Shown: positions 10,055 through 31,097 of the stretch, piece after piece
How positions within the stretch are numbered: the stretch's first letter is position 1
Layout of the letters: the number at the start of each line of letters is the position of its first letter
From: Candidatus Bathyarchaeota archaeon
GTDB taxonomy: Archaea; Thermoproteota; Bathyarchaeia; Bathyarchaeales; Bathycorpusculaceae
Length of the DNA: 64,000 bases
Direction: 5' to 3'
Assembly: GCA_963782525.1 (NCBI GenBank)
Contig: CAWAKC010000003.1
Span: 256,001-320,000 of the forward strand
Notes under the pieces: generated by a model
Told to the model about the DNA's origin: nothing
Database searches by the model: none
The model's input: only the letters and a program-made list of their open reading frames with translations
Position numbers and translations under genes: made by a program

Positions 10055-10076
10055 GTGACTGGAACCACACAGTCAC
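10055..10076. promoter_or_regulatory. Perfect palindromic operator GTGACTG-N8-CAGTCAC (site 1)
   Basis: GTGACTG GAACCACA CAGTCAC. On the minus strand it is followed after 5 bp by TTAATA. Confidence 0.7.
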
Positions 10077-10361
10077 AACTTGCAGTTTTTAATGGGTTAT
10101 ATAGAGATTTTATTTATTTTACAAATCTTCTTTCAACCTTCCCACAATTAAAATAAATGGAGAACTCTGATCACCTGATAAAACGCGTTGTTCTTTTTTC
10201 ATAAAAATGGTGTTGAGCAGACGCAACAAACATTAAGGTCGGAAGGGTAAATATTCAAAGAGGCAAGCAGCAAGTTAGAGCCTCAACCAGAAACTACCTC
10301 AATTCAGTTCGTCGCTGAAACTTCCAGTCGCTTTAATCTTGAGAAATCTTGCTCTCCTGAA

Positions 10362-11585
10362 TTGCAAAAGAGGGAATTTTTGGGTTATTTAACATTAGAA
10401 AAAGTGAGCTTATTTAAAATGATTCAAAAACTCGTTTTGGATAGTAGCGCAAAGCGCATCGGGTATTTTAGCACTTATCCTCCAAGAGAATGCGGTATTG
10501 CAAACTTCACAAAAGACCTTATCGATGCTATAGGCGACTTAGGTGGCCTTAAGTCGTCTATAATTGCTATAAACGAAAAAGGCGCTCTTTACGATTATGA
10601 TAGGCGAGTCAAATGGAATATTGATCGAGATGATGCCGAAGACTACGTGAAGGCAGCTGAATACGTTAACGCTTCAAATATCCAGCTTTTAGTTGTTCAA
10701 CATGAGTTCGGCCTCTACGGAGGCGACTATGGAGAATACATTAAACTCTTCTTAGATAACGTCAAAATACCAGTCATCACAACCCTTCACACGGTGCAAC
10801 CTAATTTTGACAAAAAAGCGATTGAAGTCCTAAAATACATAGTTGAAAGAAGCGAATCAATTATTGTGATCGCACACGCCGCAATTGATATGCTAAAACG
10901 CCAAGGAATACCTTACAAGAAATGCGCTGTCATTCCACACGGTTGCCCAAGTATTGACTGCACAAACAACAAATCAATCAAAGAATCACTTGGTCTAGAG
11001 GATCGTCTGGTTGCATCCACTTTCGGCCTTATAAGCAGCGGAAAAGGAATTGAATATGCTATTCGCGCTCTCCCCGAGGTTATTAAAAAAGAACCGCGAA
11101 TAATTTATCTCATCATCGGAGAAACTCACCCAGAAGTTAGAAAGCACGAGGGTGAAAAATACCGAAATGAATTAACGAGGCTTGTTAGTGAACTCGGATT
11201 GGAAGAACACGTCAGATTCACAAACAGATTCATTACCAAACGTGAACTAATCAAGTTTCTTCAAGCAACCGACATTTACATAACTCCTTATATTTCACCC
11301 AACCAAATTAGCAGTGGCACCCTTATCTATGCTCTTGGTGCTGGAAAAGCAGTTGTGTCTACTCCATATTATCACGCTATAGAGGTCTTGTCCAACGATA
11401 GAGGGATACTGTGCAAATTTGAGGATTCAGCTTCGATTGCTGAAGGCATAAACAGACTTTTAGACGAAAACTTCCGTAACGAAGTCCAAAGAAGAGCATA
11501 CAAATATAGTCGACGCTTCCTCTGGAAAAACGTAGCGAAAAAATACCTAAATCTCATTAATACAATAACTGAGAAGAACGAGTGA
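10362..11585 (+). CDS. Glycosyltransferase family 4
   Basis: STYPPRECGIANFT, QHEFGLYGG, TFGLISSGKGIE, SSGTLIYALGAGKAVVSTPY. The likely start is ATG 10419. Confidence 0.9.
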   Translation: MQKREFLGYLTLEKVSLFKMIQKLVLDSSAKRIGYFSTYPPRECGIANFTKDLIDAIGDLGGLKSSIIAINEKGALYDYDRRVKWNIDRDDAEDYVKAAEYVNASNIQLLVVQHEFGLYGGDYGEYIKLFLDNVKIPVITTLHTVQPNFDKKAIEVLKYIVERSESIIVIAHAAIDMLKRQGIPYKKCAVIPHGCPSIDCTNNKSIKESLGLEDRLVASTFGLISSGKGIEYAIRALPEVIKKEPRIIYLIIGETHPEVRKHEGEKYRNELTRLVSELGLEEHVRFTNRFITKRELIKFLQATDIYITPYISPNQISSGTLIYALGAGKAVVSTPYYHAIEVLSNDRGILCKFEDSASIAEGINRLLDENFRNEVQRRAYKYSRRFLWKNVAKKYLNLINTITEKNE

Positions 11586-11592
11586 GCTCAAG

Positions 11593-12648
11593 TTGCCAAC
11601 TTTTCCAATAAACCTAGATTTTGTAAGAACAATGACTGACGATGTAGGAATGCTCCAGCATTCGAAATATGCAACACCTAACAAAAAAGAAGGATACGCA
11701 ACAGATGACAACGCAAGAGCTCTTATTGCAGCTACAAATTACTTCATGTTGTTTAACGATCTAAGTGTTAAGAAACTGATTGATACTTATCTGAGCTTAT
11801 TGCTCTACATGCAGAGATCTGACGGCAAAATGCACAACTTCCTCAGTTATGATCGTCAGCTTTTAGATGAAATAGGATCTGAGGATTGTATGGGCCGAAC
11901 ACTCTGGGCATGTGGATACTGCTTGAACTCAAAATTGCCTGAAGAAACAAAACATCTCTCCAAAGAGGTTTTTGACAAACTTTTTTGCTGGACTTCCAGC
12001 TTCACATCACCAAGAGCAAAAGCATATTCAATTATGGGATTGTTTCATTACCAGAAAGCCCATCCAGAGGACCAAAATATCAAACTAAATATCATATCAC
12101 TCGCTGATCAATTAAACGGGCAATTTAGACGGGGATCTTCACAGGGATGGGATTGGTTTGAATCCATTCTTACTTACTCCAATCCGCGATTACCACATTC
12201 GCTTTTTTTAGCCTACGAAGCCACAGGAGAAGATAGGTTCTTACAAGTAGCCTCAAAATCCATGAAATTTCTAATAAATACCCAAACAATAAACAAAGTG
12301 TTCGTTCCCATAGGAAATCGCGGTTGGTATAAAAAAGGTTCTGAGCGAGCAATCTACGACCAACAATCTGTTGAAGCAGCATGCACAACAGAAGCAGCAA
12401 TTGCAGCTTTTAGAAACACCAACGAAGAAAGCTATCTCCAAGCAGCCTACAAAGCTTTTGAATGGTTCTTCGGCGGGAACTTAAAAGGTATAACGCTATA
12501 CTGCCCAGAAAACGGGAGCTGCTGCGATGGCATAACACCTGAAGGATTAAATCAAAACAAAGGCGCAGAAGCAACCATATCTTACCTCCAAGCTCGACTA
12601 AACCTCGAAGAATTAAAACAACAGGAGAATCTATTAAGAGCAACATAA
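11593..12648 (+). CDS. Six-hairpin glycosidase-like protein (domain often fused to GT4 in bacteria)
   Basis: MTDDVGMLQHS, GYATDDNARAL, HNFLSYDR, SEDCMGR, YDQQSVEA, NQNKGAEAT. Confidence 0.8.
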   Translation: MPTFPINLDFVRTMTDDVGMLQHSKYATPNKKEGYATDDNARALIAATNYFMLFNDLSVKKLIDTYLSLLLYMQRSDGKMHNFLSYDRQLLDEIGSEDCMGRTLWACGYCLNSKLPEETKHLSKEVFDKLFCWTSSFTSPRAKAYSIMGLFHYQKAHPEDQNIKLNIISLADQLNGQFRRGSSQGWDWFESILTYSNPRLPHSLFLAYEATGEDRFLQVASKSMKFLINTQTINKVFVPIGNRGWYKKGSERAIYDQQSVEAACTTEAAIAAFRNTNEESYLQAAYKAFEWFFGGNLKGITLYCPENGSCCDGITPEGLNQNKGAEATISYLQARLNLEELKQQENLLRAT

Positions 12649-12748
12649 TAGATCCAAAAGTTTGGTTGACAATTCTTCAAGACAACAACATAATTCTTAT
12701 TTCATTTATTAGCTCGGAAACCTTTCTTAAAGAAGGAGAACAAACTAA

Positions 12749-13123
12749 ATGATGACCCGCGATTTAATGTTAAAAGATGTAGTTACTGCAAATGGAAACG
12801 TTCCTGCTAAAGATGCAATTGAGCTCCTTTTCAAAAGGCACGTTGGGTCAGTAGTGATTATCAATGATGCGGATCAATGTATAGGTATTTTCACTGAACG
12901 AGACGCTATTAGGGTCGTGGCGCAAAATGTTCCTTTGGATGCACCGGTAGAAAAAATCATGACTAAAAACCCTTTTACTGTTAACGAAGATACCATCTTT
13001 CAAGAAGCAAAGAGCATCATCAAATCCGCTAAAATTCGGCATCTTCCAGTGATAGACACAAATGGAAAACTAGTTGGGCTGATATCCGTTAGACATATAT
13101 TAGATGAGATGAGTGGACTCTAA
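12749..13123 (+). CDS. CBS-domain pair protein
   Basis: GIFTERD, IMTKNP, IRHLPVID..GKLVGLIS. Confidence 0.9.
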   Translation: MMTRDLMLKDVVTANGNVPAKDAIELLFKRHVGSVVIINDADQCIGIFTERDAIRVVAQNVPLDAPVEKIMTKNPFTVNEDTIFQEAKSIIKSAKIRHLPVIDTNGKLVGLISVRHILDEMSGL

Positions 13124-13159
13124 CTTCAAAACAACGGCACACCCGGAGAAGACACACAA

Positions 13160-14053
13160 ATGAAACGGTACTCGCACAATCCTATACTTGAGCCTATAGG
13201 CGCACATGCTTGGGAATCAAACTTAGTTTTCAATGCTGCAGTCTTTGCCGCAAACAACCGCGTCCACATTCTCTACAGAGCAATGGGCACTGATAATATT
13301 TCACGCATAGGCTTAGCATCTTCTTCTGATGGCTATAACATAGATGAACGGTTACCCCTTCCTGTTTTCAGTCCAGCCAATGACATAGAAAATCAAGGTT
13401 GCGAGGACCCAAGGCTAAGTCTATTTGGCAATTCCCTAATTATGGCATACACCGCATTTGGAAGCCATTTTCAACATCAAGTCTACCAAATTGCCTTAAC
13501 ATCAATAAACACCGAAGATTTTCTAGCAAGAAGGTGGCAATGGGGCGAAAGAATTTTGGCATTCCCAGGAATCCACAATAAAGATGCTGTGCTTTTCCCC
13601 CAGAAGTTCGATGGTGATTATGTAATGTTTCACAGATTGGAACCTGACCTTTGTATCGCGCGCTCTAACGACTTGCGTCGTTGGTATGGGTTAAAATACA
13701 TCTTGGGTCCACGTGAGAAAGGTTGGGATTCTTGGAAAGTGGGAGCTGCAGGACCGCCCATGTTAGTAAATGAGGGTTGGCTTCTAATCTATCATGGAGT
13801 GAGTGTGGACCGAGTTTACTCCCTAGGAGTTGCATTATTGGATAAGAATGACCCCGAGCAAGTTCTCTATCGATCCGAAGAGCCAATACTGACGCCGACT
13901 GAAGATTATGAACGCTATGGAAAAGTTCCTAACGTAGTTTTCAGCTGTGGGCAGGTTATGATGGACGGCCAGCTTCTAATTTACTATGGTGGCGCTGACA
14001 GTGCATTATGCGTAGCTACTGTTGAGCTTTCTGAACTTTTGCCAAAAAAGTAG
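13160..14053 (+). CDS. Glycoside hydrolase/phosphorylase family 130
   Basis: NPIL, VFNAA, GCEDPR, NKDAVLFP, KVGAAGPP, WLLIYHGV, VPNVVFSCG, YYGGADS. Confidence 0.9.
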   Translation: MKRYSHNPILEPIGAHAWESNLVFNAAVFAANNRVHILYRAMGTDNISRIGLASSSDGYNIDERLPLPVFSPANDIENQGCEDPRLSLFGNSLIMAYTAFGSHFQHQVYQIALTSINTEDFLARRWQWGERILAFPGIHNKDAVLFPQKFDGDYVMFHRLEPDLCIARSNDLRRWYGLKYILGPREKGWDSWKVGAAGPPMLVNEGWLLIYHGVSVDRVYSLGVALLDKNDPEQVLYRSEEPILTPTEDYERYGKVPNVVFSCGQVMMDGQLLIYYGGADSALCVATVELSELLPKK

Positions 14054-14483
14054 TGGGTAGCGATCTGTGATTTCACAAATTAGAGTGATAAAATATGATT
14101 CTATTAATGAAATGATAACGTAATTAGAATGGTTCGCCTTATAAGTATACATTCTCGAGGGCGTAATTTTCTGGGCGCTACAATCGGTCGCTAATATAAC
14201 AAACTACGACATCAATAATCCAACTGTTATCATCACTCATCAGCAGTGGAATTAACAATTCACCAAATGATCAATTCATAAAGTAATTATTTAGCGCCCA
14301 ATAATCTTACTGTGCTTTAGGTAAATCGAGTAACCCTCTTTGAGAGCCCTCCTCGCAAGCAAGCTTTTTCTTGTAATATTTTACTCCAAATGGTAAATAA
14401 ATCGTGAATTAAGCTTGTCCGCCCACGCAAAAGGGAATAAAAAAGATAAGACATATATTTAGAACAAATCAACATAAATATAA

Positions 14484-14777
14484 GTGAATTATATGATAAA
14501 TTTTGAAGAAATTGTGGGTTTACAGGTAGTAACTTCAGGGGCACACATTATTGGAGAAGTAAAAGGAGTAAAAATTGACACCGCGACTTGGGAAGTAAAG
14601 TATTTGAACGTGAAACTTACTGGTGATGCTGCTGAGAGTCTCGGAATGAAGAAGAGGTTCAGAAGTTCCAGTATATGCCTTCCAATTAGCATGGTTCAAG
14701 CAGTTGCACATGTGGTAACGATATCTAGATCTTTAGAAGAGTTGGAAACCTCTCAAGAGATTACAGAGTGCAAATAG
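14484..14777 (+). CDS. PRC-barrel domain protein
   Basis: IVGLQVVTSGAHIIGEVKGVKIDTATWEVKYL. Confidence 0.8.
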   Translation: MNYMINFEEIVGLQVVTSGAHIIGEVKGVKIDTATWEVKYLNVKLTGDAAESLGMKKRFRSSSICLPISMVQAVAHVVTISRSLEELETSQEITECK

Positions 14778-14924
14778 CAGAAAATTACTAAGCTCACAGG
14801 CAGGTTAGCCCCGTATCCTTCGGACGAAGGGAATTTTCTCTTCCCAAGGGAATCTAACATTTCTTCCCTAATCAGAATAAGAAACTCGTCTTTGCCAGTA
14901 TCAAGCGGTTCTCGATGAAAAAAA

Positions 14925-15630
14925 TGCATCGACATTGCCACACAATGTATCATCGCAAAAATTAAAGGGCAAAACACAGTTCTCAAAAAGTACAAATTTG
15001 ACACCTCTCGAAACTTGGAAAGTCTTCTTCAAATTGAAAATTTAAAATTTGAAAACTTGAAGCTAACAAGGATAAACTGATGGCTATTGAATCCCATAAT
15101 GCCAAAGACTAGTTCTCCCAAATTTTCAAGTTATTTCCTGAAAAAATCAGACCAGAAACCAGAGAGACATACAACGCCTATGATGGGCTAAACAATGTTT
15201 TCAATTTTGCATATTACATCTTAGAATGTAGAGTACACAAGGCATTATTGAAGGCTAAATTAGAACCCTATCTCGGCTTTCTACATTCGGTTCAACATGG
15301 TAAACCCAGTTTAGTATGTGATTTTCAAGAGCTATCCCGCTATTTGATTGATGATTTCTTGATTGAGCGATGCCAAAAGCTACGCAAGAAAGACTTTGTG
15401 TTTGTGACTGATTTCATGATGCGCTTAAAAATGGGCAAAAAGATTCACCTAAAAGAATATGAGACTGACAGTTTAGCTGAAGATTTGAACGCTTTCTTTG
15501 ATCGTATAGTTGATGTTGAAAGAATAAGGTTGGAAAAAGACAAACTATTGATACGTTGATTAGTGAAGAAGCTCTACTGTTTGTAAAGTACTTGAGACAC
15601 GAAAAAAGACTGGATTCCAAGAATTAGAAA
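14925..15630 (+). pseudogene. cas1: Cas1 (solo/casposase-like) remnant
   Basis: Joined fragments read IAKIKGQNTVLKKY / KLMAIESHNAKD*FSQIF...AYDGLNNVFNFAYYILECRVHKALLKAKLEPYLGFLHSVQHGKPSLVCDFQE / VGKRQTIDTLISEEALL. There is an in-frame TAG at 15110 plus frameshifts, and the N-terminus is missing. Confidence 0.85.
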
Positions 15631-15648
15631 AGACTTTGAGGAATTAAA

Positions 15649-15831
15649 ATGATAGAACCCAGACCTTTTCTTAAATGGGCTGGCGGTAAAAGGCAATTAT
15701 TAAGTGACCTCAAACGGTCTTCTCCACCAAAGCTTAATGAATATTATGAGCCTTTCTTGGGAAGCGGAGCCCTGTTCTTCAAACTTTCCGCACTTGCCAA
15801 AATAAAATGTACCCGCCTAAAACAATTGTAA
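15649..15831 (+). pseudogene. Truncated Dam-family DNA adenine methyltransferase
   Basis: [13 protein letters not shown]...[13 protein letters not shown], then ends after 60 aa. Confidence 0.85.
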
Positions 15832-16043
15832 CAAATTATTAATAGATACCCAAAAGACTGTAAAGGAAAAACAGCCCATTTGTTCCACTCACCGGTAATC
15901 AGTGCAACCTTATAACCATGAGTTGGAATCTATCTGAAAAACTTCTATTTTAGTCATAAGTCTGACTGCGCTACTCGCGTCGCTCGTCGTGCTTCGCATC
16001 TCCAAAGTCGTAAAACAGAGAATTTATAAAAGAAGATATTAAT

Positions 16044-17219
16044 TCAAACCTTTTTTGGTAACGGAGCACTCTTTCTTTTTGTCGTATATACTTTCTTCAG
16101 TATTGGCATCGCTATGAAGGTAGTCAAAATAACGGCCATTACAGCTACAGAATAGGTTCCCGTCGAAATTAATCCACTTGTTAATCCAAGGCTTGCAATT
16201 ATTAGACCCATTTCACCTCTAGGCGTCATGCTGATACCTATTTTGAGGGATTCTTTAGTCGAGAACTTTGTCATGCGCGCAGCCACAAAACTACCCAAGA
16301 TCTTGCCTATGAAAGCCATAGCCGTGATAACTAACCCTAAGAATGCGGCTTCGCCAAAAACGCTAAGGTTTATCAGAGTTCCTATGGAAATAAAGAATAT
16401 TGGTACGAAGAACATATAGAGACTTTTTGTTTTTTCAAGAACCATCTGAACCTTTACCTGTCTTGTTGATAACGGTAAACCTGCAGCAAACGCCCCAACA
16501 ATTGGCGATAATCCAACTGTTGCAGAGATGTAGGCTGCGAAGAAACCGTATGCTAACACCAAGAGAATCAAATATTCGTCATCAAGTCTGACCTTGTCGA
16601 TGGCTCGAACTATAACCTTTGAGCCTATTAGAACTATCACAGCCCAAAAAATAACCGCTTTAACTATGACAAGCCCTATTTCAAAGGAATTAACTTGACC
16701 AGATAAAATACTTAAAACCACGGAAAGGAGAACAACAGCCACAACATCATCAACAATACCTGCCCCCAGAATCGTCAACCCAGTTGGATTATTTAGTTTA
16801 CCCATGTCTTTTAGCAGTCGAATGGTTATGCCAATGCTCGTTGCTGTAAAAACAACGCCTATGAAAAGTGCTTCATTGTTTGAAATTCCAAAATACAGTG
16901 CAGTATAGTAGCATAGAGCTAAAGGCATTATTGCACCAAGAATCCCTATAGAAAGTGATGGTAAGAGTTGTTTTTTTAGGTCACGCATCTCTGTTTCTAG
17001 ACCAATATAGAACAACAAAATAATGGCACCTAACTCGGCAAAAACGCTTACAATAGCTTGGTTAGAAATTAAATTAAAAATCGACGGTCCAAGGAGAATT
17101 CCAACTAAGAGTTCACCTAAAGCGACAGGATACCCGATCCTCTTTATCAGTAAGCCACCGACTATTGCGGCTACCAATAGTATAGACAACTCAAGCACAA
17201 ACGAGTTTGGATCAGTCAT
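16044..17219 (-). CDS. Cation:proton antiporter (CPA2/Kef/NapA type)
   Basis: AELGAIILLFYIGLE, TSIGIT, GAGIVDD, FFVPIFFISIG, PRGEMGLI. Confidence 0.92.
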   Translation of the reverse strand: MTDPNSFVLELSILLVAAIVGGLLIKRIGYPVALGELLVGILLGPSIFNLISNQAIVSVFAELGAIILLFYIGLETEMRDLKKQLLPSLSIGILGAIMPLALCYYTALYFGISNNEALFIGVVFTATSIGITIRLLKDMGKLNNPTGLTILGAGIVDDVVAVVLLSVVLSILSGQVNSFEIGLVIVKAVIFWAVIVLIGSKVIVRAIDKVRLDDEYLILLVLAYGFFAAYISATVGLSPIVGAFAAGLPLSTRQVKVQMVLEKTKSLYMFFVPIFFISIGTLINLSVFGEAAFLGLVITAMAFIGKILGSFVAARMTKFSTKESLKIGISMTPRGEMGLIIASLGLTSGLISTGTYSVAVMAVILTTFIAMPILKKVYTTKRKSAPLPKKV

Positions 17220-18477: not shown

Positions 18478-18642
18478 TTAGAGTTTTCTTTTGGCCTTGC
18501 CGACGTCTTCTTGGATTTTTCCTTTAACTTTTTCAGCTTCGCCTTTAATTATTTGACCAGTGTTACCCGTTACTTTGCCAGCTGCTACGCGGGTCTTTCC
18601 TTCTTCTTTTTTGAGTTTACCTTTAACTTCATCTTTACTCAT
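18478..18642 (-). CDS. CsbD-family general stress protein (54 aa, not in ORF track)
   Basis: MSKDEVKGKLKKEEGKTRVAAGKVTGNTGQIIKGEAEKVKGKIQEDVGKAKRKL. Confidence 0.85.
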   Translation of the reverse strand: MSKDEVKGKLKKEEGKTRVAAGKVTGNTGQIIKGEAEKVKGKIQEDVGKAKRKL

Positions 18643-18688
18643 AAAATCTCACTAAAGACTGGTGCCTCCGCCATTCTATTAAACATAT

Positions 18689-18710
18689 GTGACTGCTATC
18701 TGGCTCTAAC
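18689..18710 (-). promoter_or_regulatory. Operator site 2 plus TATA upstream of the csbD-like gene
   Basis: Minus strand GTTAGAG-N8-CAGTCAC-ATATG-TTTAATA. Confidence 0.65.
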
Positions 18711-18937: not shown

Positions 18938-19096
18938 TTATATTCTGCGTCCTGAAAGCAGTCGGACAAGTATTATGATTACAGCAATGACAAGCAGTAC
19001 CCATATGATTGTACCAAGGTTGAAGAATACAAAGCCCAAAAGCCAAAGGACAATAAGAATCACAGCAACAACGAAAAGAAAATCAAGCGCTCCCAT
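18938..19096 (-). CDS. lmo0937-like small membrane protein (52 aa, not in ORF track)
   Basis: MGALDFLFVVAVILIVLWLLGFVFFNLGTIIWVLLVIAVIIILVRLLSGRRI. Confidence 0.8.
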   Translation of the reverse strand: MGALDFLFVVAVILIVLWLLGFVFFNLGTIIWVLLVIAVIIILVRLLSGRRI

Positions 19097-19144
19097 TTTC
19101 AAAAAACCTTACTTGCCTTAACTCGCCGGACTATTTTAAGATGT

Positions 19145-19166
19145 GTGACTGCCAATAACTAGCAAC
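19145..19166 (-). promoter_or_regulatory. Operator site 3 plus TATA upstream of the lmo0937-like gene
   Basis: Minus strand GTTGCTA-N8-CAGTCAC-ACATC-TTAAAATA. Confidence 0.65.
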
Positions 19167-19200
19167 AGCTACCTCAACTTTTTATTTCAATTATACGCTT

Positions 19201-19222
19201 GTAACGACAGCTTTACAGTCAC
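19201..19222 (+). promoter_or_regulatory. Operator site 4 plus TATA
   Basis: GTAACGA-N8-CAGTCAC-ACACAC-TTAAAT upstream of 19291. Confidence 0.6.
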
Positions 19223-19290
19223 ACACACTTAAATCAACCAATGACTAGCTGTAAACTTAGTCTTGTGCAATTTTTTAGGTTTTTTAGGAG

Positions 19291-19512
19291 GTGCAACAAA
19301 TTATGCCAGAACAAAAAATAGACGTCAAAGAACAGATACAGAAGATGGGCGAGAAATGGAGTGAATTCCAGGAGACTTGGGTTTCGCACTTCAAAGACAT
19401 GGAAGTGGATGTATTAGAATGGAACTTTGGTGTGGGGAAAACAGGCGAAGACACCATCTTTGAAATGAAAGCTAAGGTCGCTGTAAGACAAAAAAAAAGT
19501 AGAACTCCTTAA
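19291..19512 (+). CDS. Small hypothetical protein
   Basis: GGAGG RBS before the start and plausible globular composition. Confidence 0.6.
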   Translation: MQQIMPEQKIDVKEQIQKMGEKWSEFQETWVSHFKDMEVDVLEWNFGVGKTGEDTIFEMKAKVAVRQKKSRTP

Positions 19513-20187: not shown

Positions 20188-20209
20188 GTTGTTGCATGTT
20201 AACAGTCAC
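20188..20209 (+). promoter_or_regulatory. Operator site 5 plus TATA
   Basis: GTTGTTG-CATGTTAA-CAGTCAC-ACATG-TTTAAT. Confidence 0.65.
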
Positions 20210-20406
20210 ACATGTTTAATTCCCCTACTAACCATAATTAAAGTTAAGTTGCTTGATAAGCTTGAAGAGAGGATACGTTGTGAACACTATATGGGCCATT
20301 ATTTCGCGCTGGAAGGAAAGTTTGGAAATAATCACAATTCCCTTCTTTGTTGTTTTATCAAATCAAAAGAAAGTTAGATTAGAAAATGTATTGAGATGAA
20401 AGTAAG

Positions 20407-21180
20407 ATGACAGTTTTAAAAAGTTTCGAATCATCAGTAGACTTTGTAGACAGGAGTAAGGATTTGAAGTTTCAATATCCGATTAACGAAAAACACAATC
20501 CGATGTTTAGCTCAACTCATGTAATCGTTGCAGCTTTAAATGAAGAAGCCGGAATTGGACTTACAATAGCAGAGCTTAAAGATAATCTTGATTCGCCTCA
20601 CATTTTAGTTGTTGATGGCCATAGCAGCGACAGGACCGTGGAGATTGCGAAAAATCTTGGTGCGGATATTGCCTTCCAAGACGGAGTTGGCAAAGGAGAT
20701 GCTATCGTGAAAGCGCTGAAACTTACAGACGCCGATGCAGATTATGTTGTGCTAACGGATGCTGATTTCACTTACCCTGCTAAGCATGTTCCTGAGATGA
20801 TTAAAATTCTTGAGGAGAATCCAGAGGTGGGTATGGTTTGTGGTAACCGATTTAACTCTCAATTAGACAACAAAGCGTTGATCAACCGATTCTATTTGGG
20901 AAACAAGCTCCTTGCGTTCAGCCATAATATTCTAAACGGCGTAACCCTTCATGATCCATTAACGGGTTTGCGTGTCATTCGAGCAGAAATACTTAGGAAC
21001 TTGAAGTTGAAATCGAATGGCTTTGACATCGAAGTAGAACTAAATAGTATAGTTCAGAAGAGAGGCTACAAAACAATTGAAGTCCCTATACAGTACCGCC
21101 AGAGGCTAGGTGAGAAAAAACTTAAAATGAAGCATGGAGCAACGATATTAAAAAGAATAATGACTGAGATGGAATTCTAA
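20407..21180 (+). CDS. Glycosyltransferase family 2 (dolichol-phosphate hexosyltransferase-like)
   Basis: ALNEE, VVDGHSSDRT, GKGDA, TDADFTYP, GNRF, GFDIEVE, YRQRLGEKKL. Confidence 0.9.
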   Translation: MTVLKSFESSVDFVDRSKDLKFQYPINEKHNPMFSSTHVIVAALNEEAGIGLTIAELKDNLDSPHILVVDGHSSDRTVEIAKNLGADIAFQDGVGKGDAIVKALKLTDADADYVVLTDADFTYPAKHVPEMIKILEENPEVGMVCGNRFNSQLDNKALINRFYLGNKLLAFSHNILNGVTLHDPLTGLRVIRAEILRNLKLKSNGFDIEVELNSIVQKRGYKTIEVPIQYRQRLGEKKLKMKHGATILKRIMTEMEF

Positions 21181-21474: not shown

Positions 21475-21801
21475 TTACGATAATACGAAGCCTATGACAA
21501 AACCAACGATTAGTCCTAAACCAAGTGGTAGTATACCCATGAGAAGTACTCCATATTGAACTGCAATAGGACCATACGTATCAGCAACACCTTTCAAGGC
21601 ACCAAGACTTAAACCGAAAAACCCAAAGTAAGCAACTATGACCAGTATAATGGCCGCTATAATAGCGATCTTTAACATTTTGTGAACTAGATAGCCCACG
21701 ACTAGTCCGATGACAAATGGAATAATCATCAAAACTAATGGTGGAATACCGCCGATGCTTCCAGAGGTGATAAAATTAATAACTTGATCTAACGCACCCA
21801 A
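21475..21801 (-). CDS. Small membrane protein (FUN14-like)
   Basis: GLVVGYLVHKMLKIAII...GFVIGF. Confidence 0.6.
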   Translation of the reverse strand: MGALDQVINFITSGSIGGIPPLVLMIIPFVIGLVVGYLVHKMLKIAIIAAIILVIVAYFGFFGLSLGALKGVADTYGPIAVQYGVLLMGILPLGLGLIVGFVIGFVLS

Positions 21802-21854
21802 AAATCAGCAACTCCAAACAAGTAAGGGATGACTACAGCGACTATTAAACACAC

Positions 21855-21876
21855 GTTGTTGCAATCACACAGTCAC
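21855..21876. promoter_or_regulatory. Operator site 6, bidirectional, with a TATA-like box on each side
   Basis: GTTGTTG-CAATCACA-CAGTCAC, followed by AATC-TTAAAATA on plus and GTGTG-TTTAATAG on minus. Confidence 0.7.
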
Positions 21877-22006
21877 AATCTTAAAATAGCTACTAAGCTA
21901 AACTAAATATAAGAATCTTGAAACACTTTTACTCAGCCAGCATGTGTGAATAACATGATTTTTAAGGTTCGGTAAATCTGTTTTCTGGAAGAGGCGTAAT
22001 TATTAG

Positions 22007-22366
22007 ATGTCAGAAAAAATTTCAGTGAGGGAAATAATTGGAGCAATTCTAAGTGAGATAAAAGCCATCCTCAAAGAATACATGAATGAAACAGAGGCTG
22101 CTGTAAAGAAACGCCTCAAAAAACTTATAATCATAAGCATAATTAGCAGTGTTTTGATGGCGCTGGGAATTTCATTTATTGGTTCAGCTTCCTTGTTCAT
22201 ACTTATCGGTTCGTTCAAGTACCTCAGCACTTCTATGCCGGCGTGGGAGGCATTGTACATCATGGGCATCACTTCAGGCATCATAGCAGGTGTGCTCTTT
22301 TTTGGACTTTTCATCATCATACGAAATCAATTGAGATCTCCCGAAAAACCTGATAAGCAAAATTAA
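22007..22366 (+). CDS. Two-TM membrane protein (phage-holin/YqjE-like architecture)
   Basis: N-terminal amphipathic helix, two TM segments, charged tail. Confidence 0.55.
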   Translation: MSEKISVREIIGAILSEIKAILKEYMNETEAAVKKRLKKLIIISIISSVLMALGISFIGSASLFILIGSFKYLSTSMPAWEALYIMGITSGIIAGVLFFGLFIIIRNQLRSPEKPDKQN

Positions 22367-24438: not shown

Positions 24439-24565
24439 GTATGCTCTAATACATCATGAATTTTTTATAATCCCTTTTTAGTTTGTGTGAGTCAAGTTAG
24501 CGAAATCGAGTTTTGACAAAAAAACAAGCCAATCCGTTGAGTCTTGTTAGAAATCAGGGGAAAAA

Positions 24566-25537
24566 ATGAACGAAATAATAAACCAGCCTTCTATAAAAGA
24601 AGAGGACCTAACGGTAAATAATGAAAAAAAGCAAATGCGATCAGAAGGCGAAATTAGGAAGGCGATAAAAGATTCCAAGGTTCTTTATCTTAGTTTGAGT
24701 GGTGGCTGGGGACAGACAAGACATTGGATAAAACAATGGGAGAAAAATAACGGCAAAAAGATAGATGAAGCCGCTGATTGGCACGACTCCGGATACATAT
24801 GTCCTTATTGCGCAGAAATAATTGCGGAATTTGATTTGCCTCCGCCGATTTCGACTACAATTTACAAATGTTGCAACAATCATAGATTTTCTCACAAAAT
24901 GATGACCGTAAAAGAAAAACAAATGCTGAAGGATGAAGAAAAACAAGATATATTATATGAAGCCCGCGCTGCAAAAAAAGCTGAGCAAGAACAGGTAGGC
25001 AAAAAGTTTGTTGAAAATGTCAAGTACGCTTTCCGCATGGTTAGAAGGACACCCTACATAGACGCTACGATCATAAAACGTGAATATCAGGAGCATCGAG
25101 AGTTCTATCACCAAAAAATGAACAGCGCATTCAAAAGTAGAACAAACAACATTTCGATTGGAGCTTTCGATAGCCTATTTAGTGCAGTTGACTTCAGCGA
25201 TACATCAACTCTTTGGGAAAGAAAAGCAGGACTTGCCAAGAGTATAAATGACAATAAGATTGATGTTATGGGAGCATTAATTGGGGCAATGTCAGCGTAT
25301 ATCGGTTCTCTTGGGGTACTTTTTCCAATTATACTCTTAGTTATTACTGAAGGAATTGCAGCTTTTGGCAATTATCTTGTGTATGGGTTCTTTGCAATCA
25401 TGTTCTTCGGATTCTACGAAGGCTACTTTAACCAAAACAGACTCAAAAGATTGGTAAAGGAACATAAAGACTACACAAGTGAATTTGATGAAATCACAGA
25501 CTTGATTGAAAGGAAAAAGGATTTACGAATCCGATAA
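24566..25537 (+). CDS. Hypothetical protein with Zn-ribbon and two C-terminal TM helices
   Basis: CPYC...CCNNH and a hydrophobic hairpin near the C-terminus. Confidence 0.6.
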   Translation: MNEIINQPSIKEEDLTVNNEKKQMRSEGEIRKAIKDSKVLYLSLSGGWGQTRHWIKQWEKNNGKKIDEAADWHDSGYICPYCAEIIAEFDLPPPISTTIYKCCNNHRFSHKMMTVKEKQMLKDEEKQDILYEARAAKKAEQEQVGKKFVENVKYAFRMVRRTPYIDATIIKREYQEHREFYHQKMNSAFKSRTNNISIGAFDSLFSAVDFSDTSTLWERKAGLAKSINDNKIDVMGALIGAMSAYIGSLGVLFPIILLVITEGIAAFGNYLVYGFFAIMFFGFYEGYFNQNRLKRLVKEHKDYTSEFDEITDLIERKKDLRIR

Positions 25538-25655
25538 TTTTCCTGATTTTCAAAATTTAGTCCCTCATCTAATGAGTTTATTCTGTTCACTTGAGGTTAA
25601 AAACCAACAAACCCAGCCCCAGCATTTCACTTAGCATCATTTTACGAGGGAGGTT

Positions 25656-28187
25656 TTAGAATTTCACCCGCTTGTAGAAAATTTCTTTCACCACTTCGCC
25701 CAAGATTATGTAGAATACAACAATTATTGCCATCAAAACAAGAACCAAGAGCGACGGTTGGGCAAAACCAAATAGTTTTCCAAGTGGAGTGAAGGGGAAA
25801 ATAAGAGTGGCCACAACAATCGTTATGGTGGTTAAAAGCAAATACTTCCCAGGATAACTTTTGAAGAATGGTCTTCTGCTCCGAATAACGAGTACAATTA
25901 GACTTGCGGAAAGGACCGATTCTATGAACCATCCGGTCCTAAATAGCTCCTTAGGACTTTGCAGAATAAAAATCAGCACGCCAAATGCAATATAATCAAA
26001 AACTGAACTTAGGACGCCGAAAACTATCATGAAATTGCGGATGAATTTGACGTTCCAGCGCCGGGGTTGTTCAACCATTTCACTGTCTACGTTGTCTGTG
26101 CCTATGGTTGTCTCTGGGAAATCTGTCATTAGATTGGTAAGTAAAATCTGCCTAGGCAAAAGAGGCAGAAATGACAAAAAGAGCGATGCGCCTGCCATGC
26201 TGAACATGTTTCCGAAATTTGCGCTTGTTGCCATAAACACGTACTTTAATGTGTTGGCAAATGTTTTTCTTCCTTCCTTTACTCCATTAGCCAGAACAGC
26301 TAAGTCTTTTTCAAGCAAAACAATATCGGCGGCTTCTTTGGCAACATCCACTGCGCTGTCAACCGATAGACCAACATCAGCGGCGTGAAGGGCAGAAGCA
26401 TCGTTGATTCCATCACCCATGTAGCCAACCACGTTTCCTGCTTTCTTGAGTGCAAGAATGATGCGTTCCTTCTGGTTTGGCTCGACCTCTGCGAAAACAT
26501 TTACTTCATTTACTTGACGAAGCAGCGCCTCATCACTTAAGATGCGGAGATCTGGACCTGCAAGAATTTTTGGCGTTGGAAACCCTACTTGTTGACTGAT
26601 GCTGGCTGCAACCAATCGGTTGTCTCCAGTTACAATTTTTAGGGAAATTCCTAACTGTTTTAACTCTTTGACAGTTTCGGCGATTTTTGGCTTGGCAGGA
26701 TCAAATAGAACAAGGAACCCTCAGAAAGTCATGCCTGCTTCACTGTCTTTGGCGATAACTTTGTCGGAGCCGATGTCTTTGTAGGCTATCCCCAGAACGC
26801 GAAAACCTTTACTACTTAGTTCTCCAAAACGTTGTTCAATCTGGTTTTGAACCCCAGCTATCGGGACAATCGTCGCTTCGGAAGTTTTAACCAAGGTGCA
26901 TACGTCAAGCACATTTTGAAGAGCACCTTTGGTGACCATCAAATTCTTGTTGTCTTTTGTCACTAAAATGCTTAGACGCTTTCGAATAAAATCGTACGGC
27001 ACCTCATCCAGCTTCATATACCCAGAAGCATCGACCTGAGCACCACAAATAGCATCATCAATCGGATTTGTAAAACCTGTCTGATTAGAAGCATTAAGAA
27101 ACGCGTAAAGTTGCGCTTTTGGGCTTGGGTTCCCGTTAAAGTCAACTATAGACTGTATTTTTATGATGCCTTCTGTGAGGGTTCCTGTTTTGTCGGAGCA
27201 GAGTACGTTCATGCTGCCGAAGTTCTCGATGGATGCAAGCCGTTTAACAATCACCTTCTGGGTTGCCATGATCTTGGCGCCGTGAGCTAAGTTAATGCTG
27301 ATAATTGCTGGCAATAGTTGAGGGGTTAGTCCAACGGCGAGCGCTAAGGAAAAGAGAAGAGAATCTAGCACAGAACGGGCAAAATACACATTTATAGCTA
27401 AAGTAACGACCACAAGCACCAACGTTACTTCCATGAGGAGATAGCCGAAATGCCGGACTCCAAGTTCAAACTCTGTTTCAGGCGGTCTGAGTTTTAGTCG
27501 TGCAGAGACTTTGCCGAACTCTGTTTGTAACCCAGTTCCTACAATAACTGCTTGGGCGTCACCACTAACCACGTTGGTTCCCATGAAAAGACTGTTTGTC
27601 CGCTGACTAAGACCCGTTGCTTGAGGCAGAACGCCAGCAGTTTTTTCAGCAGGAAAAGTTTCGCCAGTTAAGGATGATTCGTTAACGAAGAGATCCTTTG
27701 ATTCAAGAATTATTGAATCTCCAGGAATCAAATCCCCAGCATTGAGGTGAATGACATCGCCCGGCACAATTTCCTCAACAGGTATTTCCTTTTGGTTTCC
27801 ATCGCGAAATACACTTGCTTTGGTCTGAACGATGGCCAGCAGTTTATCGACAGCGTTTGCAGCACCCCTCTCCTGCCAAAATCCGAGAAGACTGCTTATG
27901 AGGATAATCGTCAGGATAATGGCAGAATTCACGGAATCGCCTAGGAAGAATGACAGAGCGCCTGCAAAGATGAGGATGAGTATAAGTGGACTTTTAAATT
28001 GAGTTAACAAGAGTGTTAGCGTGTCTGATCTTTTCTTGGGCTTAAGAAGGTTGGAACCGTATTTTGTGAGCCTTTTTTGAGCTTCATCTTGAGTCAAGCC
28101 TTTTGAGGTCGTCTGCAGTTGCTGAAGAAGCTCAGAAGTAGGAACACTCCAAAATGAAGATTGATTCTGGCTATCTTGATTACTCAG
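25656..28187 (-). pseudogene. mgtA: Mg2+-transporting P-type ATPase interrupted by one in-frame TGA (26721-26723)
   Basis: LTGE, DKTGTLT, KGA, TGDN, GDGIND, SANFGN motifs. The two ORFs are in the same frame: GMTF*GFLVLFDP. Confidence 0.85.
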
Positions 28188-28525
28188 AGAAAACGCCTGG
28201 CAGTTAACTGCTATGCCTGAAACGATTAATTGAAAGCTAGTCTATAAACCGTTTTATTGAAGGTTCAGCGTTGGGCATCTACCAGTGGTTATAACTTATT
28301 TTCAAACATAATTTTCGCTTTACGAAATTAACACGAAAGGATCCAATGAAAACTAAAATGCTCCATCGGAATTTTCCGCAACAGATATATTATTAAAAAC
28401 CCGAGTTAAATTAGGTGTTTTTCAAAATATATTGAAATTACTATTGTTGGGGACATTTGATCATGATAATTCATTAGTTCATTCAATATCTTTTGATAAA
28501 CCCATATTATTAGGGCTGTGATGCT

Positions 28526-29041
28526 TTGGAAAAACGTGTTTTAGATATCGTGGATTCGTTAAGATTAAGAATTATGCGGTTGACTAGGCATAGAGCACGA
28601 GAAATTAACATCGATGTGTTTGCTAATCCCGAGAAGTACTTGCTACGGTTGCCAATAGAAAAAATCGTCGCCGATTCAAAAGTTGATCCGGAAGCCATAG
28701 AGATGTACAAGAAGAAGATCAAAAACGGAGAGAAAATTGCACCCTTAATCGTTGTTAAGCATCCAAAATTTGATGTATACGCAGTTTTAGATGGTCATCA
28801 CCGGTATTACGCTCTTTTAGAATCGGGAAAGAAAGAAGTTGATTGCGCCCTGGCCGGAGATTTCTCTAGCCTAATGTTTTACATGACTGAACAAGGTTAT
28901 TTTCAACCAAAACCGCAAACCAAAGAAGAAAACCAAAAAAAGATTATCCATTTACACGAAAATGTCCAAGATTTTCTTCAGAATTTTCTGAAAGACCCAA
29001 ACAAATTACAAAAACCCAAGAGAGAAAACCAACCAATCTAA
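28526..29041 (+). CDS. ParB/Sulfiredoxin N-terminal domain protein
   Basis: IAPLIVVK...YAVLDGHHRYYAL. Confidence 0.8.
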   Translation: MEKRVLDIVDSLRLRIMRLTRHRAREINIDVFANPEKYLLRLPIEKIVADSKVDPEAIEMYKKKIKNGEKIAPLIVVKHPKFDVYAVLDGHHRYYALLESGKKEVDCALAGDFSSLMFYMTEQGYFQPKPQTKEENQKKIIHLHENVQDFLQNFLKDPNKLQKPKRENQPI

Positions 29042-29179
29042 TGGTTAGTTCAGAATTTTGAACCCCTAAAAAAAGTTGACTTTGGGAGCAAGCGGAAAAA
29101 AATTGTAATGACGACTATAAGAGTGCTGAGGAAAGAATCATATGAGGGTAAAGCAAAAAGAACTATGGAGAAATGACTT

Positions 29180-29938
29180 TTGGTTGAGCAAGGTATAGAG
29201 AAAGTCGAGAACATGGTTCCGACAAAAAATGCGCCGACTAAAGTCAAAAATGAAAGGCATTCACGCCCCACTCTTCTATCCAATTTTATTCTTGGAAGTC
29301 AGGATGGTCTGGTAAATGTTTTGGGTATTCTTCTGGGCTTGACGGCGGCAACCACTGATGTCCGAATTTTCTTCGTAGCCGCTCTCGCCGCTCTGGGAGC
29401 TGAATCTATATCGATGGGAGCTGTTGCTTACACGTCGACTTCGGCGAGGCGGAGAGTCTATCTAAAAGAAGCCAATAGAGAAACTCAAGAGATGAAAGAT
29501 GTTCCAGAAATTGAAAGAGAAGAAGTACGAGGGATCTTTAGACGTTGGGGTTATGAGGGGAACGATCTTGAAGATTTGACAGAGCATATTGTCAAAAATT
29601 CGAAGGCCATGCTTGATTTGATGATGTCTTACGAACTCGATCTTGCACCGGTTGAAAAGTCTGAAGCTCGTCGAAGCGCCTTTGTTGTCGGTTCTTCCAC
29701 AATATTTGGTTCTTTCATCCCTTTATTGCCATATCTTTTCGTTGGAAAAAATATTCTTCTAGGAACCGAAGCTTCAGTGATTTTCAGCGGTGTTGCTCTT
29801 TTCTGCATCGGGATCTACGAAGCGAAGACTACAGTTGGCTCTCTCTGGAAGAGTGGTTTGCAAATGGCAACAATCGGGTTGACTGCCGGTCTTGCAGGAT
29901 TCTTGATCGGTCACTTCATAGGTGCTTTACCCCTGTAA
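29180..29938 (+). CDS. VIT1/CCC1 family Fe/Mn transporter
   Basis: ILGSQDGLV, AESISMGA, ERE-rich cytoplasmic domain, GSFIPLLPY. Confidence 0.9.
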   Translation: MVEQGIEKVENMVPTKNAPTKVKNERHSRPTLLSNFILGSQDGLVNVLGILLGLTAATTDVRIFFVAALAALGAESISMGAVAYTSTSARRRVYLKEANRETQEMKDVPEIEREEVRGIFRRWGYEGNDLEDLTEHIVKNSKAMLDLMMSYELDLAPVEKSEARRSAFVVGSSTIFGSFIPLLPYLFVGKNILLGTEASVIFSGVALFCIGIYEAKTTVGSLWKSGLQMATIGLTAGLAGFLIGHFIGALPL

Positions 29939-30110
29939 ATCCAGAGACTTTGTGGATTTAGTTTTTCAGATTTTTTCGCAGGATTTGTTTGGGCGATGCC
30001 ACCTTCTCCTTCAACAACGACTTTGATTCGTATTCGATACCCTGGCCACGACCGTTTTAAAGTATCTAAAGTCAATGAAATTTTGATCTATTCTTGATTC
30101 ATTATAATTT

Positions 30111-30132
30111 GTGATTGACACACCACAATAAC
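30111..30132 (+). promoter_or_regulatory. Operator site 7 plus TATA
   Basis: GTGATTG-ACACACCA-CAATAAC-AAGAG-ATTATAT upstream of 30206. Confidence 0.6.
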
Positions 30133-30205
30133 AAGAGATTATATCGACGCTAACTTACTCATGGTAATATAAGACCAATATGACCTGTAACCGGAGATTA
30201 TCTAA

Positions 30206-30610
30206 GTGGCAAAATCAAAATCAGTCATTGCTGTAGCGGCAATCGTAGTTATCATAGTCGCAGCTTTTGCGGTCTACGCAGGTGAAACATACCCCCGAAC
30301 TATAGTGAACACGCAGTTTTCTTTCACAATAGGCGCTGACACAAAGACAACAACGTTTAACCAACCATTCCTAGACGACAAAGTGCAAGTTATAGTGACT
30401 GTCCAAAATGGAGCGGCATTATGGCGAGCCCAAATCCGAAGCGGCGACCAAGTTATCTGGGAACATGCGGCAGCACAAGGAGAGCAGCAAAGCTACAACA
30501 GCGGCGGAATCCAATTGCCCAGCGGGAACTATAATTTCACCTTCGGAACAATCGGCTTCGGTTCACTAGATGCAACTGCGACAGTCACATCTAAAGGCGG
30601 CTTCTGGTAA
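30206..30610 (+). CDS. Secreted/membrane-anchored beta-sandwich hypothetical protein
   Basis: N-terminal basic plus hydrophobic segment, and GGAG RBS. Confidence 0.65.
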   Translation: MAKSKSVIAVAAIVVIIVAAFAVYAGETYPRTIVNTQFSFTIGADTKTTTFNQPFLDDKVQVIVTVQNGAALWRAQIRSGDQVIWEHAAAQGEQQSYNSGGIQLPSGNYNFTFGTIGFGSLDATATVTSKGGFW

Positions 30611-31075
30611 AAAATGAGGTTTTTTGAAAGAAGTCTATTTTTCTTATAATTTCTCTTTCCATAGTTGTGCCAAGGAGTTTTCCATTATCACTCAAATTGC
30701 ACGAAGGGCGTGCAGGTTTGTCAAAAGACTTTTGTAAAATTCAAGACTAACTAATTTCTACTAACAGTTGCAATGGTAATCTCTATAGAAAATTTCTGGA
30801 GGTTTTCTGAATTGGAGCTTCATGCACCCACACAATCAAATTTTCGGGAATCACAGTACACGTACCAATCCTCTTGATTTCGTGCTTTTCTTCAAAGGCG
30901 TAGTTTTTCTGGCAACTCCAGTGTTATTTTTTTTTCATTTGTTCGGGGCGTCAAAATATGAGGAAGAGAGAAAAACCGAGAGTCCTTCGGAGCTATTGTT
31001 AACTCAGATTCGCCAAATTAGAATTTCTTTCTGCGCCTTCTTTGTTTCTCCTTACGGTTTAGTTTGAATAAAAGT

Positions 31076-31097
31076 GTGACTGGCACCATGCAATAAC
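31076..31097 (+). promoter_or_regulatory. Operator site 8 plus TATA
   Basis: GTGACTG-GCACCATG-CAATAAC-AAAAG-TTTATG upstream of the DUF5752 gene. Confidence 0.65.

Follow-up and report, generated by a model that had tools for sequence, protein, structure and literature searches.

The closest described counterparts of the system reported here, a palindromic operator repeated upstream of mostly small genes in a Candidatus Bathyarchaeota archaeon, are the regulons of the archaeal TrmB family. Members of this family bind palindromes, for which the available sections of PMC4158304 give the sequences TATCAC-N5-GTGATA, TACT-N3-AGTA and TACT-N7-8-GAGTA. The same sections relate the position of the site to its effect, with activation where it lies upstream of BRE (B recognition element) and the TATA box and repression where it lies downstream. 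The available part of PMC9426492 describes a similar rule for OxsR, whose motif goes with activation 5' of BRE/TATA and with repression 3' of it. The stretch analysed here, referred to as the window, comprises 64,000 nt of contig CAWAKC010000003.1 (positions 256,001 to 320,000). It corresponds to C3:256001-320000 of genome G000, which has a size of 2.87 Mb in 12 contigs. Coordinates given without a contig are those of the window.

Bathyarchaeia are abundant, uncultured archaea whose gene regulation is almost unstudied. A literature search, with subscription journals outside its scope, returned no paper on a regulon of Bathyarchaeia, no promoter-motif paper for Bathyarchaeota and none on CsbD-type stress genes in archaea. 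Families of the CsbD and DUF5670 type are sigmaB-dependent in Bacillus and Listeria. The first-pass annotation of the window had described eight copies of a palindrome near genes of this type and had proposed a stress regulon under a dimeric regulator. All eight sites are present where it had placed them, and they are part of a regulon of about 75 sites.

Sequence and distribution of the palindrome

The genome-wide consensus of the motif is TGTKRYTG-N8-CARYMACA, a 24-bp palindrome, and the iterated 26-nt matrix built from G000 has the consensus tTGTKRYTGy-N6-rCARYMACAa. Within the window, the degenerate 22-mer GT(G/T)(A/G)(C/T)TG-N8-CA(G/A)(T/C)(C/A)AC has five exact matches, compared to 0.01 expected from shuffled sequence. 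The perfect palindrome with at most three mismatches has eight, compared to 1.58 expected and a maximum of five in 100 shuffles. With eight sites in 21 kb, compared to an average of about 0.6 per 21 kb for the genome, the window contains a local cluster. One half-site is often degenerate, as had been remarked before; the site at 19201 is the weakest, with 13.1 bits compared to 16.7-25.6 bits for the other seven.

The motif is also strongly enriched over shuffled intergenic DNA at the scale of the genome. In 517 kb of intergenic DNA there are 18 copies of the exact 24-mer pattern, and none in 20 dinucleotide-preserving shuffles. The position weight matrix (PWM) has 75 matches of at least 14 bits in the same DNA, while the 20 shuffles give 1.7 on average and never more than 4. 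The matrix, unlike the exact pattern, had been trained on the same sites, which makes the pattern count the cleaner test of enrichment. G000 has 87 distinct sites that score 14 bits or more, and 76 of these are intergenic, within the 18% of the genome that is called intergenic.

The heptamer CAGTCAC alone is not over-represented; the two strands have 267 copies in total, and crude gene calls place 56 of these in intergenic DNA. Around the 56 intergenic copies, bases that were not selected for recover the other half of the dyad. T, G and T are found at -16, -15 and -14 in 36, 38 and 37 copies respectively, G at -9 in 31 and A at +7 in 35, and an AT-rich hexamer lies at +13 to +18. When spacings of 0-20 were compared over the whole genome, perfect GTGACTG/CAGTCAC dyads were found with N8 only. 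Near-perfect dyads, with at most two mismatches, also reach their maximum at N8 (18, with 0-15 at the other spacings). The second most frequent spacing is N15, with 15 such near-matches.

Only the dyad is conserved among the sites, while the spacer and the flanks vary. What the many promoters have in common is an inverted-repeat DNA site. It is very probably a real regulon operator, and its form marks it as the predicted binding site of a dimeric transcription factor. The idea that a chance pattern or a repeat element in several copies explains the matches deserves almost no credence. It could appeal to the degenerate half-site at some window sites and to nothing beyond that, and it is already refuted because of the shuffle controls, the restriction of conservation to the dyad, and the position kept upstream of orthologues in dozens of genomes.

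The sites are unevenly distributed in G000. Motif sites and genes of the HTH_45 family are concentrated on contigs C2, C3, C9 and C11, which have a lower G+C content (0.41-0.42) and a lower coding density (0.77-0.79, by the gene calls of this analysis). The large contigs C1 and C7 have few sites.

Position relative to the TATA box

A rough model of 1,160 upstream regions places the core TATA signal of G000, YTTAAR, about 40-45 nt before the start codons. Beyond this core, the model contains only a weak A at -3/-4. The first-pass annotation had placed one half-site of each palindrome just before a TATA-like box, overlapping the BRE position, and had asked for a conserved spacing. Both are observed. 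The tetramer TTAW starts exactly 4 nt past the 26-mer, or 5 nt past the conserved ACA, in 34 of 152 oriented flanks of G000 and in 47 of 152 oriented flanks of relatives, against a background of 1.8% for each intergenic position, and a smaller peak lies at offset 6. A strict TTAW box is found on one side of 39 of the 76 intergenic sites, on both sides of four and on neither side of 33, and many of the last group have other AT-rich hexamers.

The start codons behind the box are mostly 40-80 nt past the motif. The site spans approximately -34 to -57, so that it abuts or overlaps the BRE position and, as in a TrmB-type regulon, lies upstream of BRE/TATA. The two half-sites also differ from each other. 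Where there is a box on one side only, position 3 is a G in 60 of 75 TATA-proximal halves but in 26 of 75 distal halves, and the outer flanks of the two halves differ as well. This asymmetry suggests an extra constraint on the half that lies beside transcription factor B (TFB).

Occurrence in other genomes

The exact 24-mer occurs 1-25 times per genome in 22 of the 24 other genomes of the genus, where the reversed control gives 0-1 matches. No match was found in the remaining two, G006 (96% complete) and G018 (88%). A single exact match was found in 16 genomes from eleven other families of the order. In a draw of 301 genomes from the class, the matches are concentrated in this genus (26 of 30 genomes), and four further genera of the same family have the motif, namely g21 (6 of 8 genomes), g37, g38 and g39. 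Outside the family, more than one match was found in this draw only in G102 (40) and G219 (7), which belong to other families.

The loci compared in relatives were 57 motif loci from six genomes and six loci of one type of HTH_45 gene, type A. Orthologues of G000 targets recur behind the motif at these loci. They include a KGG protein (seven loci, in most cases back to back with a B12-radical-SAM gene), L068 (four loci), fasciclin (three loci), CsbD, DUF5670 and the holin-like protein. Also recurring are L039, L045, L033, L004, the L059/OTCase pair, an ABC ATPase and a divergent GT4/GH130 pair (in G017 and G007).

Three families were followed through the genus, and they bear out the expectation that the motif would be found upstream of orthologues in related genomes. 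The motif lies at -69 to -81 in 15 of 20 CsbD homologues from other genomes of the genus; three others have a site elsewhere within 200 nt that reaches at least 14 bits, and in two there is none. It lies at -65 to -79 in 19 of 23 DUF5670 homologues, and one has a site of 12.7 bits. It precedes all 21 homologues of L045, mostly with 23-27 bits. The three DUF5670 homologues of a divergent subfamily (L282, L296 and L297, from G003, G322 and G013) do not have the motif. They share a different conserved element in its place, TAAAAGTTTCAAAAGATCAACTTCAC, about 61 to 73 nt upstream.

The two distant genomes have the motif in front of genes of a protective type. In G102 the sites are separate and have the same TATA offset as in G000 (15 loci obtained). 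The genes behind them, identified by eye and by BLAST, encode Hsp20, DJ-1/PfpI, AhpD-like, glyoxalase, ElaB-like and GYD proteins and a relative of L045. In G219 the seven sites are packed in one island of 10.6 kb (C5:21462-32104; L299-L304), with genes for a Dps-like ferritin, an Fe/Mn superoxide dismutase, a class II photolyase, a GYD protein and a relative of L045. The single regulator gene of this island encodes a protein that joins a TrmB winged helix to a MEDS sensor domain (Pfam), and a site lies 23 nt before its reading frame. The island looks like a transferable oxidative/UV stress module. The motif is tied to protective genes in three separate lineages, which is the best available support for the stress regulon proposed earlier.

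Genes behind the motif

The targets are small. For the 61 called ones, the median length is 108 aa compared to 205 aa for all called genes of the genome, and 69% of them have at most 150 residues compared to 37% of all called genes. A Pfam scan was made of 76 target proteins, together with the window genes and some neighbours. Stress, redox and protein-damage functions are represented by CsbD, DUF5670, a KGG-repeat/LEA-like protein, methionine sulfoxide reductase (MsrA), thermosome, Hsp20, MscL, dodecin, glyoxalase, cupin, cupredoxin and a CDGSH protein. A Dps-like protein is also among the genes behind the motif. Membrane, transport and domain proteins include two TatA, two fasciclin and C2H2-finger proteins, four stand-alone RAM/GYD-type proteins and two DUF5752 proteins. 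Further transport and regulatory targets are a P-type ATPase, BrkB, two ABC ATPases, two small HTH_45 proteins and PadR. Housekeeping families are represented by OTCase, SUI1 and the urease gamma subunit, whose site is in called coding DNA. No Pfam family was assigned to 37 of the 76 scanned targets. The target genes mostly encode small proteins that look to be of the general-stress type, associated with desiccation or osmotic stress, oxidative stress and protein damage, and a stress signal is plausible. A search for RNA runs that contain the locus returned none.

Two unnamed families stand out among the targets. The first (CxCG...ILVVPDLKAM...H..H) has at least six copies in G000. Members with the pattern CxCG..ILVVPDLKAM..H..H(K) are at C2:34024, C2:64549, C9:87268, C9:148209, C2:60844 and C2:63694. 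Two members of this family are divergent from HTH_45 genes with the motif in between, and another is near an HTH_45 gene. The second family, L045, is a single-copy 88-residue protein (C5:72216-72482 in G000) that is always behind one of the strongest sites. Its members (L045, L317-L340) have the sequence FQVLLLDND..DVEVQE..VDF..VK.HL.NGGSVFITSK followed by a basic C-terminal helix. The family has 433 clusters in a global protein library and no structural match.

Some motif promoters do not lead to a reading frame. A promoter of the form CACAT-catt-ATTTAT precedes a conserved hairpin of about 20 bp at C1:381167(+), C1:314767(-) and C11:121933(-) in G000, and at L104:800-1055 (G019) and L112:800-1055 (G013). 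The stem has compensating changes between the copies, and the CU-rich loop keeps CUCUCUCUUCC. No Rfam family was found for it. The hairpin is a candidate small RNA (sRNA) of the regulon. At C5:13497, a strong site with a canonical TATA box faces an empty stretch of 81 nt next to RNase HI. Six relatives have a type-A HTH_45 gene exactly at the matching place, and it seems that this gene was lost in G000 while its promoter was kept.

The protein that reads the motif

The lead to a candidate regulator came from G017, a genome with the motif and few regulators. It has five TrmB-family genes, and for two of them no counterpart is listed in the motif-less genomes G006, G018, G118 and G307. The longer of the two has an orthologue in G000 with 74% identity, located outside the window at C9:188643-190307. 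The encoded protein, TrmB-CBS, has about 570 residues and contains a TrmB domain (PF01978, residues 10-77, E 9e-14), a Regulator_TrmB domain (289-400) and a C-terminal CBS domain according to Pfam.

The presence of TrmB-CBS follows the motif. Orthologues of about 570 residues and 60-84% identity are found in 24 of the 26 motif-rich genomes tested, defined as genomes of the family with at least five exact matches. The gene is cut by the contig end in G009 and has an internal TGA in G023. It is found in one of 12 motif-poor genomes, defined by 0-2 matches; this is G011 (58% complete), whose copy has an in-frame TAG. None of the 16 genomes from the other families of the order has an orthologue, apart from a 38% homologue in G040 in which the recognition helix differs. 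Both states are found within genus g21, where G244 and G318 have motif and protein and both are missing from G169, G181 and G242. Among 22 orthologues, invariance is 99-100% in the winged helix at residues 21-80, compared to 66-90% in the rest of the protein.

Several results weigh against this candidate. Motif-rich genomes G021 (65% complete) and G285 (100% complete, five matches) do not have an orthologue, nor do G102 (40 sites) and G219 (seven sites). Since the protein is missing from G102 and G219, the motif there must be read by another protein, perhaps another TrmB relative. In G219 the obvious substitute would be the island's TrmB-MEDS protein, and this at least indicates the same protein family. 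The co-occurrence itself rests on few independent losses, perhaps three, as related genomes are not independent, and the profiling took in only part of the regulators. The motif-less genomes are small and many accessory genes are missing from them; therefore, other genes must share the profile of TrmB-CBS, and L045 nearly does. The promoter of the TrmB-CBS gene has a site at none of 22 loci, so there is no signal of autoregulation, and only two weak or distant matches were found elsewhere at these loci. Neighbourhood searches missed the gene for this reason. Finally, the centres of the half-sites are 16 bp apart, which is wider than in the TrmB sites TATCAC-N5-GTGATA and TACT-N3-AGTA. On balance, the chance that the TrmB-CBS protein is the reader of the motif is about even.

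Other candidates were examined and rejected. The PadR protein L015 has orthologues in only six other genomes, and the TrmB-PAS protein at C10:120475 has full-length orthologues only in G002 and G023. The TrmB-MEDS protein of G219 has no close orthologue elsewhere. The presence profile of L045 fits the motif except in G017; its predicted model (pLDDT 78) does not contain a DNA-binding fold, and neither structure nor sequence gave a match.

Sites and genes of the window

Most of the gene labels given to the window by the first-pass annotation are confirmed by Pfam. These are CsbD, DUF5670 (lmo0937-like), GT2, DUF5752, GT4 and GH130. The holin label is reached only below the cut-off, and the DUF1059 label is not recovered.

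Site 1 (10055-10076, no strand assigned) is a perfect GTGACTG-N8-CAGTCAC with 18.9 bits. On its left side, a TATA-like TAATAT at the canonical offset faces the target gene at 9743-9994 on the minus strand. This gene encodes an 83-aa Cys/His protein (CPCGY...H..FH) without a Pfam family, and its description as DUF1059-like has no Pfam support even at E 5. It belongs to the pair L011/L029, and a paralogous site and gene are found at C1:382108. On the right side, a GT4 gene begins 284 nt away, as expected from the earlier statement that the site faces a GT4-GH130 cluster. The GT4, 351-aa, CBS-pair and GH130 genes at 10362-14053 on the plus strand (Pfam) are a probable distal target operon, in keeping with the divergent pair in G017 and G007.

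Site 2 (18689-18710, minus strand, 20.2 bits) has its CAGTCAC half proximal to the TATA box TTTAATA, at 18677-18683 on the plus strand. Its target (18478-18642, minus strand) encodes a CsbD-like protein of 54 aa (PF05532, E 3.4e-10), and the arrangement is that of the 15 CsbD homologues described above. Site 3 (19145-19166, minus strand, 16.7 bits) has the TATA box CTTAAAATA at 19132-19140 on the plus strand, and its target (18938-19102, minus strand) encodes a 54-aa membrane micro-protein of the DUF5670 (lmo0937-like) family (PF18919, E 7.6e-9). Site 4 (19201-19222, plus strand) is the weak site with a degenerate distal half. It has the TATA box CTTAAAT at the canonical offset (19228-19234), and a full site is present at the orthologue in G020 (L092). 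The target of site 4 (19291-19512, plus strand) encodes a 73-aa protein without a Pfam family, and its paralogue at C3:233121 of G000 is likewise a target.

Site 5 (20188-20209, plus strand) is the strongest of the eight, with 25.6 bits and the TATA box TTTAATT at 20215-20221. Its target, a GT2 glycosyltransferase gene (20407-21180, plus strand; Pfam), begins 196 nt downstream, and a 48-codon open reading frame (ORF) at 20253-20399 lies in between. Site 6 (21855-21876, no strand assigned, 22.3 bits) lies between divergent genes and has TATA-like boxes on both sides, at 21843-21850 and 21880-21888, in agreement with its first description. The gene to the left (21475-21801, minus strand) encodes a 108-aa membrane protein whose orthologue in G013 has the motif. 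The gene to the right (22007-22366, plus strand) encodes a holin-X/YqjE-like membrane protein of 119 aa whose orthologue in G020 has the motif. The holin label of the latter refers to PF07332 (Phage_holin_3_6), which scores below the Pfam cut-off (20.4 compared to 28.4 bits; E 5.6e-4).

Site 7 (30111-30132, no strand assigned, 22.1 bits) also has two TATA-like boxes, at 30101-30107 and 30138-30144. Its target (30206-30610, plus strand) encodes a 134-aa secreted or membrane protein without a Pfam family, and a 54-codon ORF (29911-30075, minus strand) lies on the other side. Site 8 (31076-31097, no strand assigned, 22.9 bits) has TTATGG at the canonical offset on the right and TTTTATTC on the left, with no ORF behind the latter. 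Its target (31113-31496, plus strand) encodes a DUF5752 protein (Pfam) with a probable start, MSQITK, near 31146. A second DUF5752 gene at C9:239632 of G000 is a target too.

Three other features of the window were recorded. A P-type cation ATPase at 25656-28097 on the minus strand is read as two ORFs of 458 aa (N-terminus, E1-E2 domain) and 319 aa (hydrolase, C-terminus), which is possibly a frameshift or a split gene. A lone C-terminal Cas1 fragment of 103 aa is encoded at 15248-15559 on the plus strand, and an IS200-type transposase gene lies at 31780-32232 on the minus strand.

Discussion

The best explanation of these results, and probably the right one, is that the palindrome is the site of a dimeric factor, TrmB-CBS, that activates about 75 stress-type promoters. 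The factor would be a stereospecific activator that helps TFB and the TATA-binding protein (TBP) onto the promoters. The site is upstream, it keeps one exact register with the TATA box and its TATA-side half is specialised; these features are read as a factor that touches TFB or TBP. By analogy with other sites in this position, activation is somewhat favoured as the mode of action. The factor could instead be a repressor of the same regulon, which would occupy the BRE and keep TFB off until stress releases it. The overlap of the site with the 6-7 bp just upstream of the TATA box, where TFB binds, counts for repression and against an activator. The site in G219 between a TATA-like box and the start of TrmB-MEDS is in a classical repressing position, and TrmB-family proteins act both ways according to the available sections of PMC4158304. 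Simple occlusion would need neither an exact one-position spacing nor asymmetric half-sites, whereas both fit a protein-protein contact. In addition, the characterised sites upstream of BRE/TATA in the available text of PMC4158304 and PMC9426492 activate. Repression is therefore unlikely, although it is the rival that deserves a place beside activation.

The reader of the motif could also be one or several HTH_45 proteins, which are Sso10a-like (winged helix and antiparallel coiled coil; homologous to 1R7J, E 9e-13), rather than TrmB-CBS. There are 28 copies in G000 and 27 in motif-rich G102, compared to 0-1 in the four motif-less genomes (about four weak ones in G307). Their own genes often have the motif, in 9 of 9 cases for type B (L008, L054), 6 of 6 for the longer type A (RRGKLDIIAEILLFCEQQ...) and 3 of 22 in G102. 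The winged helices of Sso10a are at opposite ends of a rod in the available description (PMC4941522), an arrangement that would fit half-sites set far apart. However, types A and B occur in separate, complementary subclades only, and G016, G020 and G022 have many sites but neither type, so both were rejected as the master regulator. The motif is found at 0 of 10 HTH_45 loci in G022 and 1 of 11 in G020, and an HTH_45 gene is nearby at only 2-3 of 72 motif loci in relatives. No single HTH_45 orthologue is common to G000 and G102 (maximum identity 46%), and HTH_45 genes are present, with no motif, in other families of the order. An HTH_45 reader is thus quite improbable. We conclude that these proteins are favoured targets and not the master factor; they may be stress-induced DNA-binding proteins. 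A further idea does without a separate regulator and takes the TATA-side half-site as a special BRE for an alternative TFB paralogue, the counterpart of a sigma factor. The fixed position beside the TATA box, the better conservation of the proximal half and the approximately four TFB genes of G000 would agree with this. But the distal half, 8 bp further upstream, is conserved too, though it mostly has no TATA box of its own, and a BRE would not need this half. The number of TFIIB-repeat matches is four in six motif-rich genomes and also in motif-less G018, and three in G006, so the TFB copy number does not track the motif. An alternative TFB was rejected on these grounds and has very little probability.

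CBS pairs usually bind adenosyl ligands or respond to ionic strength. The CBS pair of the candidate activator TrmB-CBS may couple the regulon to an adenosyl-ligand or ionic-strength signal, for example the energy or osmotic state of the cell. Such a signal would, as pure conjecture, suit targets such as MscL, the transport ATPases, the GT4/GH130 sugar cluster and the LEA/KGG-type proteins. Taken together, these elements could amount to a general stress response without a sigma factor. A TrmB protein would sense the energy or osmotic state by its CBS pair, dock at one fixed spot beside the TATA box, contact TFB and turn on about 75 promoters together, and the products would be the same small protective proteins that sigmaB controls in Firmicutes. 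The sRNAs with a CU-rich hairpin loop could add a translational arm. This combined picture is tentative, and it is doubtful that all of its parts hold.

For the Bathyarchaeia, the finding supplies an operator that is sharply defined, about 75 listed promoters, a core of genes that several genera have in common and a candidate regulator with a ligand-sensing domain. The exact TATA spacing and the asymmetric half-sites make the system a good model for the contact of an archaeal factor with TFB/TBP. The motif also labels dozens of unnamed micro-proteins as probable stress proteins.

Among known systems, the Tgr/TrmBL1 regulon, with its Thermococcales glycolytic motif (TGM), and the Halobacterium TrmB protein VNG1451C are likewise global regulons defined by a palindrome, with a site upstream of BRE/TATA (available sections of PMC4158304). 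The candidate reader described here shares with them the TrmB winged helix (PF01978) and the TrmB regulator domain. The spacer of the VNG1451C site (TACT-N7-8-GAGTA in the same sections) resembles the N8 of the present motif. The differences are the sequence and the wider half-sites, which are 8 bp long with their centres 16 bp apart. The targets are genes of sugar metabolism there but stress genes here, the latter as read from sequence alone. The sensor is also different, as it is a CBS pair and not a known sugar-binding function. The TGM sequence TATCAC-N5-GTGATA itself was not found in the motif, whose GTGAT/ATCAC-like halves are in the opposite order and further apart.

OxsR, a single-domain protein of Haloferax volcanii, is a TrmB-family factor that controls a stress regulon, like the candidate here (available part of PMC9426492). 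It differs in being a small thiol-switch protein with the CG-rich motif CGGnCGnGCG according to the same part, while TrmB-CBS has 570 residues and a CBS pair and its putative site is an AT-balanced 24-bp palindrome. The sites of TFB-RF1 (PMC5937170), EarA (PMC5512572) and Ptr2 (cited in PMC4158304) abut BRE/TATA, and recruitment of TBP or TFB is the mechanism put forward in the available text, as proposed here. These factors control one or few operons, belong to other protein families and have other motifs, as far as that text describes them.

The sigmaB regulon of Bacillus and Listeria shares gene families with the targets, namely CsbD, DUF5670, KGG-repeat, Dps-like, small heat-shock protein and methionine sulfoxide reductase. 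It differs in mechanism, as here a site-specific factor would act on a TBP/TFB promoter with no sigma factor, and the likeness in membership is by analogy only. There is no sign of a dedicated initiation factor like sigmaB, as the TFIIB-repeat count does not track the motif and the distal half-site argues for a dimeric factor. The system thus appears to be neither the TGM regulon nor a sigmaB regulon, but one that is predicted to work like a TrmB-type global regulon.

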